From the IMG/VR virus record IMGVR_UViG_3300030060_001384, positions 1-50,594 of that record: a stretch of 50,594 nt of DNA; one strand, given 5' to 3'. Source of the DNA: a virus (lineage: Duplodnaviria; Caudoviricetes). Position numbers and translations under genes: made by a program. This document shows, in pieces, positions 23,283-49,500 of the stretch. Within the stretch, counting starts at the first letter, position 1, and the number at the start of each line of letters is the position of its first letter. Under the pieces are notes generated by a model. The model worked only from the letters and a program-made list of their open reading frames with translations, did not search any database and had not been told where the DNA came from.

Positions 23283-23427
23283 TTTTGTCACCGAAAATAT
23301 CGGGGACTACGAGACGGTGGCAGAGTGTCACTTTGCAGCGACACAAATGTTCTGGGACGATATGCCTGCGAACAAGGAAGCTGTGTGCATGAGAGTGGAG
23401 GAGTATAAACTTGCAGAGAAAGATTAG
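23227..23427 (+). CDS. Small Cys-pair hypothetical protein
   Basis: RBS GGAGG; hydrophobic N-terminus, YETVAEC..AVC. Confidence 0.65.
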   Translation: MTVEVVWVLLLVTALNKYDFVTENIGDYETVAECHFAATQMFWDDMPANKEAVCMRVEEYKLAEKD

Positions 23428-23686
23428 AGTGTTTCGCAACCACAAGGGCGAACAACTGTTGCCGATTGTGGAGGAGCGTATAAAGGGACGCTACGAAGTT
23501 GTCGCTCCTGTGTCGTCTGTCCGTATTGGGGAGACACGCAAAGATTTTGTCAGGTCAAAGGCTTGTGTGGACTACCCACGATGGGTTGCACTCTTTGTCA
23601 GCAAGAGCGAAAGAGAATGTCAAAAATGGCTTGACAGGTACGAGAGGGTGGTGCTAAAACTGTGCATACCGTACGAAGTGCGTTAG
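23411..23686 (+). CDS. Hypothetical protein
   Basis: 91 aa ORF, RBS GGAGGAG, TTG start. Confidence 0.55.
   Translation: MQRKIRVFRNHKGEQLLPIVEERIKGRYEVVAPVSSVRIGETRKDFVRSKACVDYPRWVALFVSKSERECQKWLDRYERVVLKLCIPYEVR
23631..23660 (+). promoter_or_regulatory. Putative sigma70 promoter inside the 3' end of ORF 23411..23686
   Basis: TTGACA-N18-TAAAAC with extended -10 TG; about 50 nt upstream of a terminator. Confidence 0.5.
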
Positions 23687-23745
23687 GCATCGTTTGGTCT
23701 CCTTGGGAAGCAGGGCTGGTTTTCGGACTGGCCCTGTTTCTTTTT
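23667..23745 (+). ncRNA. Candidate small RNA with anti-SD/anti-AUG seed
   Basis: Bounded by a promoter and an intrinsic terminator; seed GCATCGTTTGGTCTCCTT (23687-23704) is complementary to early-gene initiation regions; 5' end estimated. Confidence 0.45.
23708..23745 (+). terminator. Rho-independent terminator
   Basis: AAGCAGGGCTGGTT-TTCG-GACTGGCCCTGTTT then CTTTTT. Confidence 0.85.
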
Positions 23746-23748
23746 GTG

Positions 23749-23778
23749 TTGACAGTCGTGTTGCATTACCTGTATGGC
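23749..23778 (+). promoter_or_regulatory. Possible sigma70 promoter
   Basis: TTGACA-N18-TATGGC just after the terminator; weak -10. Confidence 0.35.
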
Positions 23779-23813
23779 TAACTTACATAGCGTCAAACAA
23801 AGGAGATTGACAC

Positions 23814-24056
23814 ATGGAAGTGATTATAAAAGACGACGACCGCCGACAGCTTTTGAAGGCACACAATGATCTGCGTAACATGATCACCACGATTCACGAG
23901 TGCCACGACGTTTGGATGTCAGACGTAGGCAAGTTAGAGCATTTGCAACATCTGTTGCACCACGCGCTCAAGTTCACCCCACCGGTTGACGATGAAGGCA
24001 AAAAGATGTGGTGGCGTGACTATGTGTACGAAGAAGAGGTGCCTATCGATGACTAG
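23814..24056 (+). CDS. Hypothetical protein
   Basis: RBS AAGGAG, 80 aa. Confidence 0.7.
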   Translation: MEVIIKDDDRRQLLKAHNDLRNMITTIHECHDVWMSDVGKLEHLQHLLHHALKFTPPVDDEGKKMWWRDYVYEEEVPIDD

Positions 24057-24330
24057 GTTGTATCAACTGGTAATGGACAGCGCAAAGAACCCGCTGTCCA
24101 ATATCCCTGACGTGAACACTCGTCACATGATCATGCAAGTTCTTGCGTGGATGTGGTGTATCGTGTTCTCGTCGTGGGTGGGATCGATTGTCGTGTTTGG
24201 CATCAGTGCGCTTGTTCACGCAATCCTGTTGGCTGGTATCTTTATCACAGTCGGCGTATTCGAGACTGCCAAACGTAAGCCGCAGTATTTCGGTGGACTT
24301 GGCAGAGGCAACGGGGGAGAGCATGAGTAA
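24049..24330 (+). CDS. Membrane protein
   Basis: ATG 24049 (MTRLYQLVMD..NPLSNIPD..RHMIMQVLAWMWC); 2-3 hydrophobic segments. Confidence 0.7.
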   Translation: MTRLYQLVMDSAKNPLSNIPDVNTRHMIMQVLAWMWCIVFSSWVGSIVVFGISALVHAILLAGIFITVGVFETAKRKPQYFGGLGRGNGGEHE

Positions 24331-24466
24331 GTTGTGGGACAAGGCTGTGGAATACTACCTCACACACGATGACATAGAAATATTCCTGCTTGCGTGCTGC
24401 TGGGCCTTCTTGGGCTGGATGATGTTCCACGCCTTCAACGGCATCATGGAAAGGATTTACTGCTGA
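24323..24466 (+). CDS. Small membrane protein (47 aa)
   Basis: RBS GGGGGAG; MSKLWDKAVEYY..., one hydrophobic segment. Confidence 0.6.
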   Translation: MSKLWDKAVEYYLTHDDIEIFLLACCWAFLGWMMFHAFNGIMERIYC

Positions 24467-24801
24467 TGCGTATAATTGAGAACCACGTCGAATCTTGTCA
24501 CTGCTGGCACTGTGGCGGCTATGGCAAGGTTGCCTACACAAAGGCCGTTCCGGACCCGATCTGTGGCGGCGACCTTGTCGAGGAATACGGTCACTGCCAC
24601 GACTGCGACGGCGGCGGGGGATTGTACCGTGCCAAGCTAACGCAGACGACGGTGATCCGTGCCTTCTTGACACAAGCAAAACACGCCTTAGAAGATATAG
24701 ACCTGATGGACAGCGACCTTGACCAGATATATACAAAGATCGATCAGGTGGTTGCTGATGTTGAAAACTACGAGAAAAAGGTAGGCACAAGAGATGGGTA
24801 A
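24466..24801 (+). CDS. DnaJ-type zinc-finger protein
   Basis: CWHCGGYG and CHDCDGGG; TGATG-coupled. Confidence 0.7.
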   Translation: MRIIENHVESCHCWHCGGYGKVAYTKAVPDPICGGDLVEEYGHCHDCDGGGGLYRAKLTQTTVIRAFLTQAKHALEDIDLMDSDLDQIYTKIDQVVADVENYEKKVGTRDG

Positions 24802-24976
24802 AGTATCCGACTGGCTAATCGAAATGGAAGAGGACGCATCGTACATGACGCGTCAGGAATTCATCGACAAGCACGGCGAGACGGTGTCCGAGATGTACGA
24901 CGAATTGCAACTCAAATGGCGGATAGACTATGCCGATCCGGGCGACGGCTTCACACACCCGGATGATGTGGACTAA
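24794..24976 (+). CDS. Hypothetical protein
   Basis: MGKVSDWLIEMEEDA.., acidic 60 aa. Confidence 0.65.
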   Translation: MGKVSDWLIEMEEDASYMTRQEFIDKHGETVSEMYDELQLKWRIDYADPGDGFTHPDDVD

Positions 24977-25056
24977 ATAATGTCAGCCAAAAATATTGTC
25001 AGCCTAAATATTGTCAGTCGGAATATTGTCAGCCAAAAGCCCACAACATTGTCACC
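24975..25056 (+). repeat. Tandem 15-16 bp repeats, core AATA(T/A)TGTCAG
   Basis: Copies start at 24975, 24991, 25006, 25021; degenerate copy at 25045. Confidence 0.9.
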
Positions 25057-25189
25057 CGACTATCTGTGTGACAAATGTGGTGAGCCAGCCATGACAAACG
25101 ATTCGGGGCAGTTACGCTGTCCGTCCTGTTGGCTACAAGAAAAGGGAAGACAAATAAAACCTATTGACCGGGGCGGCTATCGTCCGTAA
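24980..25189 (+). CDS. Small zinc-ribbon protein
   Basis: CDKC..CPSC; N-terminal NIVS x3 encoded by the DNA repeats. Confidence 0.5.
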   Translation: MSAKNIVSLNIVSRNIVSQKPTTLSPDYLCDKCGEPAMTNDSGQLRCPSCWLQEKGRQIKPIDRGGYRP

Positions 25190-25192
25190 GGT
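25164..25192 (+). promoter_or_regulatory. Putative sigma70 promoter
   Basis: TTGACC-N17-TAAGGT with A-rich upstream element. Confidence 0.55.
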
Positions 25193-25230
25193 TTGGCAAC
25201 GATTAGGAAACATGACAAGGAACTAACGAC

Positions 25231-25845
25231 ATGAAACAAGCCACGCTAGTCGATCACGAAAGAATGATTCACAATATCACCAGCGTTTACCGTGACGCCG
25301 ACGAAATACAGCACGCCGAGGGTTTGTTGTGGTACTCCGACGCACAAAAGGCGGCGCACAATATCGCGGTAAAATACGACATTGCGGTTTATATTGTGGT
25401 TGCTGTTATTGCTGCGCTTTCCCCGAATAACAAATGGTCTCGAAATATTGTCAACGCCGATGCCTTGATTGGTGCATTCATCCGGGGCGATGGTCTCTTG
25501 TCGGTGAAGGTCTCGACCTATCACACCATGAAGCGCAAGGCTTGGGATATTTTGGCGGCGCGTCCGGACTACGACGGGGCAAAAGCCATGCTGAAAGGTC
25601 AAAAGATTACGTCCTTTTTCATGGACATTATGGGCGAGTTTAACGTCACGATTGACGGCCATGCACGAAACATTGCCTACGGTGAGCGCGTCGGCTTGAC
25701 TGACGACCGGACAAACATTGGCGTCCGTGAATACCGCGCTTTGCAGGCTGCATATGAAGAGGCAGCACGCCGCGTCGGCCTCATGCCCTACCAATTACAG
25801 GCAATCACTTGGCGCGTCTGGCGCGACCGACACGGCATCAAATAA
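25231..25845 (+). CDS. Conserved phage protein, helix-hairpin-helix DNA-glycosylase-like
   Basis: WY..AALSP..W..KITSF..VTIDGHA..QLQAITW pattern; fold assignment is inference. Confidence 0.55.
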   Translation: MKQATLVDHERMIHNITSVYRDADEIQHAEGLLWYSDAQKAAHNIAVKYDIAVYIVVAVIAALSPNNKWSRNIVNADALIGAFIRGDGLLSVKVSTYHTMKRKAWDILAARPDYDGAKAMLKGQKITSFFMDIMGEFNVTIDGHARNIAYGERVGLTDDRTNIGVREYRALQAAYEEAARRVGLMPYQLQAITWRVWRDRHGIK

Positions 25846-25885
25846 TGTCAGCGCCATGCCTCAAATATTGTCAGCGCCATGCCTC
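25838..25885 (+). repeat. Tandem 23-bp duplication containing AATA(T/A)TGTCAG
   Basis: TCAAATAATGTCAGCGCCATGCC / TCAAATATTGTCAGCGCCATGCC. Confidence 0.9.
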
Positions 25886-26092
25886 TAGTTTGGGGATCGG
25901 TTGGGGGTTTCCTGCGCCATTGTTCGGGGGCGGGACTGTCGGGCCGGTCAGCGGTTGCCGCGAGTCGCGGGGCGGCAACCAACTTTTGCCGGGGCTGCAA
26001 AACTTTTTTGCGCCCGGGGCTTCAACTGGTGCAAAACCTGTGCCATGATTCGGGTGCTGGCGATCTTGCCAGCCAGAAAAGGAGAACAAGCT

Positions 26093-27118
26093 ATGCTTGA
26101 TTTAGTACCGACTAACGATGCCATCCGCCCGGTGGGTGACGGCTGGGAATACCGTCACAACCATGTTGACGATCTGTCACTGTATACCGATCACTGCCGA
26201 ATCCGGCGGATTCCGATCGTTGCCATGCGGCCATATTACAGCGACCTGCACGGCACGGTGGAAGAGCCGCATAATATGGATGACTTCCATGCTCTTTATA
26301 ACGCCGCGACCGATCAGGTGCTTTCGACCCGGCCTATCGGGAAGACCTACAAGCTTGTTCCCCATGATCAGCTTTTTGCGGCGCAAGCCGAGAAGCTTTC
26401 CGAGGGGGACTTGCCGACCGGTAACGTGACGGTGACCGACCGGCTCTATGACGGGGGACTCCGGGCGCATCGAACCATCCACTTCAACGACCTGTCCGAG
26501 AACATCGAACACTTACAGGACCGGGTGGTTTACCGCATGGACATTTTCAATTCGGTGGACATGTCGTGGAGCTTCCAAATATTCAGCGGGGCTTATCGCG
26601 ACCTGTGCCGGAATACTTTGGTGTTCGGTGGCGAGAAGGCATATCACCAGAAGCGCAAGCACACCAAAAACCTGTCCGTCGGGGCTTTGATTAGCAAGGC
26701 GGCAATGGGGCTTGAATTCTGGCAAAACAACCGGGACCAGATGCAACTGTGGCGGGGCCGTGCCATGAACAGCCAGCAATTCGCCGCGCTGCTGGCCGAT
26801 ACCATCTGCAAGAAAAACGACGCGGCAGCGGAAGCCGGGCAGGGTGACGGTCTCAACCGGCGGCTGATGAATTACCTACTGCACCGCTTCGAGGAAGAAG
26901 AGCGGGAACTGGGCCGGACCATGTGGGCCGGTTATAACGCTCTGACCCATTGGTCAACGCATCTCGACACCGAGTGGACAGACGACGACGGGAAGACATG
27001 GAAGACGGGCCGCAAGGATGCCCGGCCTCATTATGTCGCGCGGTCCCGCTCTGACGCTGTCCGGACGGTGATCGAATCCGACCGGTGGCGAGACATGGAA
27101 GGATTAGCCTTTGCATGA
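26093..27118 (+). CDS. DUF932/DUF945-family protein
   Basis: RBS AAGGAG, ATG 26093; YKLVPH, NSVDMSWSFQIFSGAYRDLCRN, RKHT, TMWAGYNALTHWSTH. Confidence 0.8.
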   Translation: MLDLVPTNDAIRPVGDGWEYRHNHVDDLSLYTDHCRIRRIPIVAMRPYYSDLHGTVEEPHNMDDFHALYNAATDQVLSTRPIGKTYKLVPHDQLFAAQAEKLSEGDLPTGNVTVTDRLYDGGLRAHRTIHFNDLSENIEHLQDRVVYRMDIFNSVDMSWSFQIFSGAYRDLCRNTLVFGGEKAYHQKRKHTKNLSVGALISKAAMGLEFWQNNRDQMQLWRGRAMNSQQFAALLADTICKKNDAAAEAGQGDGLNRRLMNYLLHRFEEEERELGRTMWAGYNALTHWSTHLDTEWTDDDGKTWKTGRKDARPHYVARSRSDAVRTVIESDRWRDMEGLAFA

Positions 27119-27188
27119 TCTTATAGCCTCAATATTCCGGCTTTGCTGGATTCTCTTGTTGGTGATCATCATTGCCAGCATCATTTAG
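27111..27188 (+). CDS. Putative 25-aa hydrophobic peptide
   Basis: TTG start after GAAGGA; MHDLIASIFRLCWILLLVIIIASII; fills the intergenic gap. Confidence 0.45.
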   Translation: MHDLIASIFRLCWILLLVIIIASII

Positions 27189-27207
27189 AACGAAAGGAAC
27201 CAAAACG

Positions 27208-27648
27208 ATGAATATCCCGAAAACACTTCTGAACGATGTTCGCAAGCTTGCGGACCGGTTCGAACAGGTTGTCCGTCAGGACGAACGCAAGCGCCTGTTA
27301 GCGAAATTCCGTGCTGAGACTGGGCGCAAGCCAGTCGCAAAGCCGCAGCCGTTGTATCCCGTGACCGGGCTGCATGGTGAGCCGCTTGTCGAGGTGGCAT
27401 CCGTGCCGGTGAAGACTGTGGCCCAAAATGTGGATATCGGCCCGGGCCATCACCGGCTTCTGGCGGAATTGGCAAAGGGCTATCAGGCCGCGCCAACCAT
27501 GGCCGGAAACCTCGGGCTTACCCGTCTCACTGTGGTCCGGTATCTGTCCGACCTCCGCAAGGCAGGCTATCCGATCAAGGCAAAAAGCACGGGCCGTCGG
27601 GCTGCTGGCCGCTACCAGAAGATATACCGGCTTGACCAGACCGGTTGA
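27208..27648 (+). CDS. HTH DNA-binding protein
   Basis: RBS AAAGGA; C-terminal MAGNLGLTRLTVVRYLSDLRKAGYPI (winged-HTH pattern). Confidence 0.75.
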   Translation: MNIPKTLLNDVRKLADRFEQVVRQDERKRLLAKFRAETGRKPVAKPQPLYPVTGLHGEPLVEVASVPVKTVAQNVDIGPGHHRLLAELAKGYQAAPTMAGNLGLTRLTVVRYLSDLRKAGYPIKAKSTGRRAAGRYQKIYRLDQTG

Positions 27649-27662
27649 CCTGTGGCTATAAT
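27631..27662 (+). promoter_or_regulatory. Putative sigma70 promoter
   Basis: CTTGACC ... TATAAT (27657-27662); the 19-nt spacer is long. Confidence 0.45.
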
Positions 27663-27714
27663 TCGGGGCGGTCCAGATCGGGCCGCCTCAACTTTTGCAA
27701 AAGGAGACGAAACA

Positions 27715-49105: not shown

Positions 49106-49500
49106 GTACGCTGAAGGCAGATACCATCCAAAGCACCAGCGGCGGTGCGGCTACGCTGACGAAGCAACAGGCAGCGAAGATATGGTCTAACTTTGACGGC
49201 ACCACCAGCGGTATTACTCCTCGTGATAGCTTCAATGTATCAAGCGTTGGAGACACAAACACCGGCACTTACACAATCAATCACACAAACGCCATGTCAA
49301 ACAATGACTACTGTGCTGCTTTGATGGGGCGTATGCAAAGAGGCACAAGCAACAGTGGTGCTGCAAACGGGATTGACTCATCAGATGGTGACTCAACTGT
49401 TTTAACAACCAGTCACATATTAGCTTACATCAATGTTGCAACCACCAACGATGCTGATGTGCCTATTGGTGGGTCAATGGTGATGGGAGACCTCGCATGA
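49102..49500 (+). CDS. Small tail-fibre-associated protein (GDLA paralogue)
   Basis: MSTLKADTI, AAKIW, DSFNVSSVGD..TGTY, MGDLA. Confidence 0.75.
   Translation: MSTLKADTIQSTSGGAATLTKQQAAKIWSNFDGTTSGITPRDSFNVSSVGDTNTGTYTINHTNAMSNNDYCAALMGRMQRGTSNSGAANGIDSSDGDSTVLTTSHILAYINVATTNDADVPIGGSMVMGDLA

Follow-up and report, generated by a model that had tools for sequence, protein, structure and literature searches.

Does the end of a small early gene in an uncultured marine phage also encode an RNA that controls other genes of the same phage? The question is raised by a locus near the middle of the virus record IMGVR_UViG_3300030060_001384, whose whole stretch of 50,594 nucleotides (nt) was analysed and is called here the window. 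An initial annotation of this DNA had noticed a promoter, TTGACA-N18-TAAAAC, upstream of a terminator with a UUCG loop and, between the two, an 18-nt segment resembling the complement of several initiation regions, and it had proposed an RNA of about 80 nt from the + strand, antisense to the stretch between the Shine-Dalgarno (SD) sequence and the AUG of several early genes. The promoter, the terminator, the 18-mer and the counts of matching bases were all found where it had placed them; what it had not seen is that the promoter motif lies inside a real, conserved gene of 91 amino acids (aa), which we call g91. Our results show that the locus is a real and conserved phage RNA element, previously undescribed, and its covariation with three initiation sites in relatives supports the core of the proposal. 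We consider it probable, and the most likely reading of the data, that the element specifies a trans-acting antisense repressor RNA of three early genes, which encode a DUF932 protein, a helix-turn-helix-like (HTH) protein and a 73-aa protein (gene 27715; genes without another name are called by their start positions).

Matches to g91 were found in viral metagenome contigs at 56–98% identity, namely in 55 relatives that have the end of the gene followed by the element and in a 56th, truncated contig that is cut off before the gene end. The relatives keep the same layout, in which a promoter-like motif is followed by a 5' hairpin (H1), an unpaired pyrimidine-rich segment and a terminator. A covariance model built from the 17 sequences in which H1 has a long loop was searched against 58 loci: the window scored 53.6 bits (E = 4.5e-12), 51 of the 58 loci were recovered at E < 1e-7, four more were matched more weakly, and three gave no match at E up to 0.1. 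The copy lies on the + strand, and at the end of g91 wherever that gene was located, with no second copy at E < 1e-7. Known RNA families do not include it: Rfam 15 gave no match to the whole window at gathering thresholds, and a permissive search of 23550-23850 returned a single hit, a CRISPR repeat of the minus strand that stayed below threshold (19.4 bits, threshold 37, E = 0.67). The DNA of 23300-24100 matched none of 50,697 phage records, and full-text searches of the literature yielded no description of the element or of small RNAs in phages of the HMO-2011 type.

The minimum-energy fold of 23666-23747 (-35.9 kcal/mol, z = -4.4) was equalled in stability by none of 200 shuffled sequences. 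Its 3' helix is the terminator hairpin (23705-23742, followed by a T run), which a terminator scan also called, and the stretch left unpaired between this helix and H1 is just CUCCUU (23699-23704). All 42 distinct relatives fold according to a common plan, with a 5' hairpin that begins 2-4 nt past a conserved AUA, or the predicted 5' end, then an unpaired pyrimidine-rich stretch and then the terminator, and the predicted RNA is 80–120 nt long in the relatives and about 80 nt in the window. H1 itself is built in various ways, either as a short hairpin lying entirely in the last codons or as a stem of 10–15 base pairs with a loop of 14–19 nt that holds the stop codon. When helix covariation was tested in the 17 long-loop sequences, the cells of H1 and the terminator were 97.4% paired (95.6% for H1 alone and 99.1% for the second helix) and six pairs had changed on both sides, three of them among the 12 pairs of H1; the covariation score was reached by none of 500 shuffles, and slid-partner controls paired at 38–51%. 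An alignment of 38 sequences contains compensatory changes at five of the 14 consensus pairs of the terminator. Because the G-U pairs in both helices would be A-C mismatches on the opposite strand, the structured RNA is that of the + strand. Some lineages have elaborated this plan: in three of them (L020, L029 and L039; also L104, L113 and L123) a structured insert of about 100 nt sits in the H1 loop, where it separates the stop codon of the g91 homologue from the 3' arm, and in L020 the gene end is present twice, the second copy also having an H1. The lineage of L041 and L047 (also L125 and L129) keeps the motif and H1, with an insert, has no terminator, and places the SD of the next gene directly after.

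That the element has a promoter of its own is suggested by the codons of the gene in which it is embedded. The Trp-Leu-Asp codons read TGGCTTGAC in 56 of 57 sequences (the window and its relatives), the lone miss being a contig end, and among 42 distinct g91 coding sequences the synonymous sites of the motif are nearly invariant: Leu74 is CTT and Asp75 is GAC in all 42, Val81 is GTG in 39 of 42, Leu82 is CTA or TTA (YTA) in 38 of 38, and Ile86, at the predicted start, is ATA in 38 of 41. Equally conserved residues nearby are free at their synonymous sites (Lys83 is AAA in 22 sequences and AAG in 19, Cys85 is divided 21 to 21, Leu84 uses four codons); further away, Leu16 uses five codons, with an entropy of 2.04 out of 2.58, and the other conserved Leu, Val and Ile columns use three to five. 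The 18-nt spacing is unaltered by any insertion or deletion in the relatives. Transcription is predicted to start at about 23666-23668, and we infer that the RNA of this locus starts from its own host-type promoter inside g91. A census of the TTGACA hexamer is uninformative, the hexamer being too common in the window.

The strongest indication of what the RNA would do comes from the way in which it varies together with certain initiation regions. Loci were taken with flanks of 10 kilobases (kb), orthologues of the early genes were identified by blastp, and the RNA from the stop codon of g91 to the terminator was compared with the initiation region (-30 to +6) of each gene. The complementary stretch differs from lineage to lineage and fits the DUF932 site of the same genome well past the SD core; the perfect runs at the targets reach 8–12 nt, and in the lineages listed in the table the pairing covers the SD core and stops 1–10 nt short of the start codon. 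With one representative per RNA type, the longest run as the measure and 5000 permutations, cognate pairs exceeded non-cognate ones for DUF932 (15 RNA types, 9.13 against 6.6 nt, no permutation as high; energy -22.7 against -18.5 kcal/mol, p = 0.0002), for HTH (15 types, 8.07 against 6.3 nt, again none of 5000; energy p = 0.0012) and for 27715 (nine types, 7.67 against 6.4 nt, p = 0.018; energy p = 0.036); the control genes 24049, 24980, DUF7178 and g91, from the same two operons, showed no effect (p = 0.07–0.81). Restricting the comparison to nine divergent lineages gave 9.67 against 6.54 nt for DUF932, a difference reached by none of 20000 permutations, with the cognate pair as the row maximum in seven of the nine, p = 0.006 for HTH and p = 0.034 for 27715 (six lineages); five controls, 23814 among them, gave p = 0.40–0.86. 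Counted over distinct combinations of RNA and site, runs of at least 8 nt occur in 17 of 23 for DUF932, 15 of 25 for HTH and 14 of 16 for 27715, and in the five control genes in 3 of 20 (23814), 1 of 20, 1 of 29, 0 of 27 and 1 of 25 (25231). The covariation of seed and target that the initial annotation had offered as a check is thus seen for these three genes, in about nine lineages. Its other two candidates did not hold up: for 23814 and 25231 cognate pairs were no better than non-cognate ones by run length (nine-lineage p = 0.40 and 0.47), 23814 being ambiguous in the test by RNA type (energy p = 0.001, run length p = 0.088).

Where the seed lies in these RNAs also fits a role in pairing. 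In the predicted folds of 13 lineages, seed positions are unpaired in 112 of 149 cases, compared with 420 of 1212 for all positions, and the conserved seed of the relatives consists of the stop codon and about ten following nt, unlike the 18-mer of the window. For the relative G003, whose genome is complete (54.9 kb), a search of both strands gave two longest complementary runs, each of 11 nt, and both fall on initiation regions, one that of the DUF932 gene and the other that of a 181-aa open reading frame (ORF) about 1.1 kb further downstream. In G004, a 10-nt run at a 154-aa ORF that occupies the place of the HTH orthologue and a 9-nt run at the DUF932 site are among the top matches, and genomes of the L100 type have a fourth site with the same 12-nt match, at an 81-aa gene or, in L121, at DUF7178. 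The ranking in G004 also contains unrelated matches brought in by an over-represented 8-mer, AAACGTAC, which occurs 41 times on both strands of that genome (L142-L144) where about 1.7 occurrences are expected, nine times in G003 and not at all in the window, and which may serve there as promoter, binding site or modification motif. The IMG/VR contig L111 is an apparent recombinant that combines an RNA of the L023 type with DUF932, HTH and 27715 initiation regions like those of the window lineage.

Features of the g91 locus and its proposed targets in the window, with paired segments from six related lineages
Feature	Position or paired segments	Strand	Details
g91, 91-aa early gene	23411..23686	+	Stop codon TAG at 23684-23686; last 56 nt hold the promoter-like motif and the 5' arm of H1
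Promoter-like motif	23631..23660	+	-35 TTGACA 23631-23636; 18-nt spacer; TG 23652-23653; -10 TAAAAC 23655-23660
Hairpin H1	23668..23698	+	5' arm formed by the last g91 codons; stop TAG in the loop; 3' arm GCAUCGUUUGGU (23687-23698)
Target-complementary segment (18-mer)	23687..23704	+	GCATCGTTTGGTCTCCTT, reverse complement AAGGAGACCAAACGATGC
Intrinsic terminator	23705..23747	+	17-bp stem, UUCG loop, U-rich tail; closes the g91 operon and the putative small RNA
Promoter-like site	23749..23778	+	TTGACA-N18-TATGGC; from sequence, predicted to drive the next operon (23814 to 27715)
DUF932 initiation region	26074..26098	+	Best-supported putative target; duplex-energy rank 2 of 73, co-folding rank 1 of 72
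DUF932 gene	26093-27118	+	Pfam PF06067
HTH initiation region	27190..27213	+	Second putative target; duplex-energy rank 4 of 73, co-folding rank 4 of 72
HTH-like gene	27208-27648	+	Weak PF08279 match, 24.3 bits against a cut-off of 25
27715 initiation region	27697..27720	+	Third putative target, with the closest match in the window; duplex-energy rank 1 of 73, co-folding rank 54 of 72
73-aa gene	27715-27936	+	ORF; third proposed target
L107, DUF932 site	UAGUUCUCCUUU with AAAGGAGAACUA		12-nt run
L116, DUF932 site	UAAUGUCCUUUU with AAAAGGACAU		10-nt run
L100, DUF932 site	GCGGUUCCUUU with AAAGGAACCGC		11-nt run
L106, DUF932 site	UUUCUCCUAUG with CAUAGGAGAAA		11-nt run
L131, DUF932 site	CGGUUCCUUUCC with GGAAAGGAACCG		12-nt run
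L134, DUF932 site	CCUUUCGUUGU with ACAACGAAAGG		11-nt run

Taken alone, the window makes a suggestive but weak case for pairing; the signal rises above chance because seed and target covary in the relatives, that of the window by itself being only modest. The reverse complement of its segment, AAGGAGACCAAACGATGC, matches 16 of 18 bases at 27701-27718, 15 of 18 at 26079-26096 and 14 of 17 at 27194-27210, with a spacing from AAGGA to ATG that is common also to 23800-23816 and 25217-25234. A ranking against other initiation regions, which had been suggested as a check, came out in favour of the three genes: when the duplex energy of 23687-23708 was computed for 73 candidate regions, 27715, 26093 and 27208 took the first, second and fourth places, with 23814 and 25231 at 24 and 22. 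Co-folding, in which the whole RNA was combined with 60-nt leaders of 72 regions, is given beside these ranks in the table. The 18-mer can be regarded as the seed only in part: CUCCUU is exposed, and the other 12 bases are the 3' arm of H1 in the window. Two further pairings were considered and set aside. A second block complementary to 23686-23694, AACGATGCC, at 26114 and hence 22 nt into the DUF932 gene, is probably due to chance, since L090 and L091 have the same RNA but lack the block, and a pairing of a GUUGUUG motif in the linker with CAACAAC upstream of the DUF932 sites was rejected because CAACAAC is also present where the RNA lacks the motif. Separately, an identical 13-nt block, GGAGACCTCGCAT, is found at 26-38, 418-430, 804-816 and 49486-49498, where it forms the SD-to-start region of four late genes on the + strand (starts 40, 432, 815 and 49497); it contains GGAGACC, complementary to GGUCUCC of the window RNA, and these sites rank 7–9 of 73 by duplex energy. 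Orthologues of the late gene 815 were sought in five relatives and none was found.

Several observations weigh against a pairing RNA, or at least against its operation in the window as we propose. Twelve of the 18 complementary bases (23687-23698) are paired, as the 3' arm of H1, to the last codons of g91, and the window lineage has the shortest perfect runs of all (7–8 nt), so that its pairing rests on an imperfect extended match that would need H1 to be opened. Co-folding of both RNAs moves the 27715 site down to 54th place of 72. When the 5' 11 nt of the segment were shuffled, the best site matched the observed -25.1 kcal/mol in 3.25% of 400 trials, and in a sliding scan of both strands 27715 was the best non-self site by just 0.5 kcal/mol; the same scan with the short unpaired part alone placed none of the named sites in the top 25. 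Among the relatives, non-cognate pairs reach 8 nt or more in 26–39% of comparisons, because several RNA types are related, and the permutation tests leave some shared ancestry in. There are also exceptions: the RNA of L111 fits its own sites over only 6–7 nt (6 nt at DUF932), L098 has no match between RNA and sites, and the L041/L047 lineage, with no terminator, scores only 23.9 bits with the covariance model. As for the promoter, its -10 hexamer, TAAAAC, ends in C where a T is usual, and for this reason a simple sigma-70 scan passed the motif over. Finally, the four sequencing runs that were found to contain the region come from one study, with contigs at shares of 0.22–0.24, and none is on record as RNA.

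The repressor reading that we favour can be put as a sequence of steps. A non-coding RNA, some 80 nt long and from the + strand, whose gene is embedded in the g91 3' end, would be transcribed from the promoter inside that gene, and it could possibly also be made as the 3' end of the mRNA of the g91 operon. It would begin with a protective H1, expose its pyrimidine-rich segment in a loop or linker, and end at the intrinsic terminator of the operon. The exposed segment would then pair in trans with the SD-to-start regions of three genes that close the next operon, block ribosome binding and thereby lower the translation of the DUF932, HTH-like and 73-aa proteins. The RNA is probably made as a separate molecule: in most lineages the seed includes the stop codon, which a terminating ribosome would cover, and this favours a short, untranslated RNA. 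That pairing would repress rather than activate is suggested by its position over the SD. With regard to timing, the RNA may act as an early-to-middle switch, as the initial annotation had supposed.

There is a modest chance that no separate RNA exists and that the element acts only as the 3' untranslated region of the g91 operon mRNA, either in trans or in cis through read-through into the DUF932 operon. The terminator is common to element and operon, the 5' arm of the element is coding sequence, and the -10 is imperfect and escaped the scan, all of which would fit such an arrangement; yet the frozen synonymous sites in TTGAC, TGnTAAA and ATA are difficult to account for unless a promoter is there, a seed that contains the g91 stop codon would be hidden by translation of that gene, and the promoter-like site directly 3' of the terminator means that the downstream operon needs no read-through. 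Nor do our computations, which yield complementarity and not the sign of its effect, speak directly against pairing with a positive or neutral outcome, such as protection from nucleases, guided processing or a sponge for another factor. Such an outcome has a slight chance, given that the SD core is covered and that pairing of this kind blocks initiation in the c4 RNA of P1 and P7 and the sar RNA of P22, as the passages of PMC12197685 on these RNAs state.

That the locus is an ordinary operon terminator with a chance resemblance to initiation regions, CUCCUU being generic and the remainder set by the pairing of H1 to g91 codons, could draw on the window, where the 3' arm makes up most of the segment, shuffled segments sometimes do as well and the margin over the next site in the genome is small. 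Chance would, however, have to account for lineage-specific matches of 10–12 nt to the same three genes in about nine lineages, with five controls free of any excess in run length, for seeds at unpaired positions and for a promoter-like motif constrained at synonymous sites, and we regard it as very improbable. A gene on the minus strand is less credible still, and we hold it extremely unlikely. The initial annotation had itself raised this alternative, pointing to a 30-aa ORF (23690..23598) that overlaps the end of g91; the ORF exists, started by AAGGAG-N8-ATG, and with a good SD it is present in the window, four close relatives and two other lineages, but an SD, a start and at least 20 aa are conserved in only 7 of 42 distinct sequences, and L002 and L003, which share 91% identity in g91 with the window, lack it. 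In most lineages its start position is the complement of the g91 stop codon, the ATG of the window being the complement of CAU in the 3' arm of H1; moreover, the G-U pairs of the helices fit the + strand only, and no minus-strand promoter or terminator is evident. A type I toxin-antitoxin pair was rejected on the same low count and on a 30-aa product that has no hydrophobic stretch.

Among known systems, the closest analogue of the antisense repressor that we favour is c4, whose loops pair with a ribosome-binding region, followed by sar of phage P22. By this analogy the element works like c4, as a short structured phage RNA with an unpaired loop or linker complementary to a phage ribosome-binding region on the same strand; it is not a member of the c4 family. 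In a 2025 review (PMC12197685), c4 of P1 and P7 and sar of P22 are antisense RNAs that block the ribosome-binding site of the ant mRNA, and the loop sequences of c4 underlie the heteroimmunity of P1 and P7, so that differences in complementary sequence set specificity there much as the lineage-specific pairs of seed and site would do here. Unlike c4, the element lies in the end of a protein gene, has its own promoter-like motif and shows no similarity to c4 by sequence or model; its targets, at least three, are dispersed 2.4–4 kb downstream, behind a terminator and a promoter-like site, whereas c4, which is cut out of a precursor, shares a single operon with the target that directly follows it, and its phages are temperate, and the phages that carry the element resemble the lytic HMO-2011-type podoviruses in their replication genes. 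The likeness to sar lies in a small phage RNA that acts on an initiation region (that of ant in the case of sar) and prevents translation, at least in that source's account of sar. Both sar and lambda OOP, however, are cis-antisense RNAs from the opposite strand, while the element and its targets 26093, 27208 and 27715 are on the same strand and far apart.

Bacterial small RNAs offer other parallels. MicL in cutC and DapZ in dapB are transcribed from promoters within coding sequences and share the terminator of the mRNA; the element resembles them in a shared terminator with a U tail and a short conserved unpaired seed, its promoter-like motif within a coding sequence would be a further likeness, and it differs in that RNA and targets are both phage-encoded, whereas MicL and DapZ come from the host and regulate its own mRNAs together with Hfq. 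As to a chaperone such as Hfq, the sequence of the element shows only the U-rich tail. RNAIII, RsaE and RoxS of Gram-positive bacteria pair through C/U-rich seeds with several SD regions, and the exposed pyrimidine-rich motifs of the element, in loop or linker, appear to be aimed at several SD regions in the same manner. Unlike theirs, however, its seeds run 3–7 nt past the SD core into flanks that are specific to the lineage, which argues for gene-specific rather than generic recognition of SD sequences.

The window comprises the entire virus record of 50.6 kb, with an estimated completeness of 96%. Its minus strand carries a replication module between 12.9 and 22.8 kb (ribonucleotide reductase, family A DNA polymerase, DnaB-like helicase and primase), 3' of which lie two + strand operons of small genes. 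The first of these closes with g91 and the terminator; the second contains 23814, DUF7178 (25231), DUF932 (26093), a gene with a weak HTH match (27208) and the 73-aa gene 27715, and ends with a terminator at 28007-28030, the terminase genes following from 28.6 kb on. Judging by its helicase, the phage is a distant relative of HMO-2011-type marine podoviruses, since this protein is 36% identical to the helicase of Pelagibacter phage HTVC033P and next matches those of Roseobacter CRP phages and HMO-2011. In the relatives, TTGAC with a -10 of the TATGG type recurs directly 3' of the terminator, as in the window. A GC-rich hairpin at 27664-27690 lies in the gap that separates the HTH stop codon from the SD of gene 27715; at its position L083, L085 and L086 have a full terminator-like hairpin with a T run, just 5' of the SD, and it may be an internal attenuator ahead of one of the RNA targets. 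The g91 protein belongs to no family of Pfam or PHROGs, has no homologue in the 50,697 phage records and matches only unnamed clusters of the ESM Atlas, with scores up to 0.79. Its AlphaFold model, with a predicted local distance difference test score of 88.2, gave nothing with Foldseek at E <= 0.001 and had no clear PDB match, the best VIA result (Z = 4.3) being among unrelated folds; no fold like that of an RNA chaperone was seen, which does not exclude such a fold. A preprint mentions mutation, following exposure to phage, of a DUF932 gene carried by an integrated plasmid, an observation that has no bearing on the mechanism considered here (10.1101/2025.06.20.660599).

To our knowledge, few phage RNAs control genes of their own phage in trans, and the classic ones, c4 and sar, come from temperate model phages of enteric bacteria. 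The element described here is an RNA conserved across a whole clade of uncultured marine phages, with apparently at least three targets and a specificity that has changed repeatedly along with them, and sequence alone therefore provides a natural set of compensatory mutations. It marks DUF932, a widespread protein of phages and plasmids whose function is not known, as the product of a gene whose dose or timing needs tight control. It also means that the ends of phage protein genes can conceal RNA genes that are overlooked by routine annotation. A further idea, speculative and with a small chance of being right, is that the pairs of seed and site fall into nine or more specificity classes, whose diversification resembles that of immunity groups, and mediate an RNA-based heteroimmunity or superinfection exclusion between related phages. 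If this were true, RNA accumulated in an infected cell would silence the DUF932, HTH and 73-aa genes of any same-class relative that superinfects, joint change of seed and site would allow lineages to escape, with mismatched recombinants such as L111 as the raw material, and RNA-based exclusion would operate in phages that look lytic.

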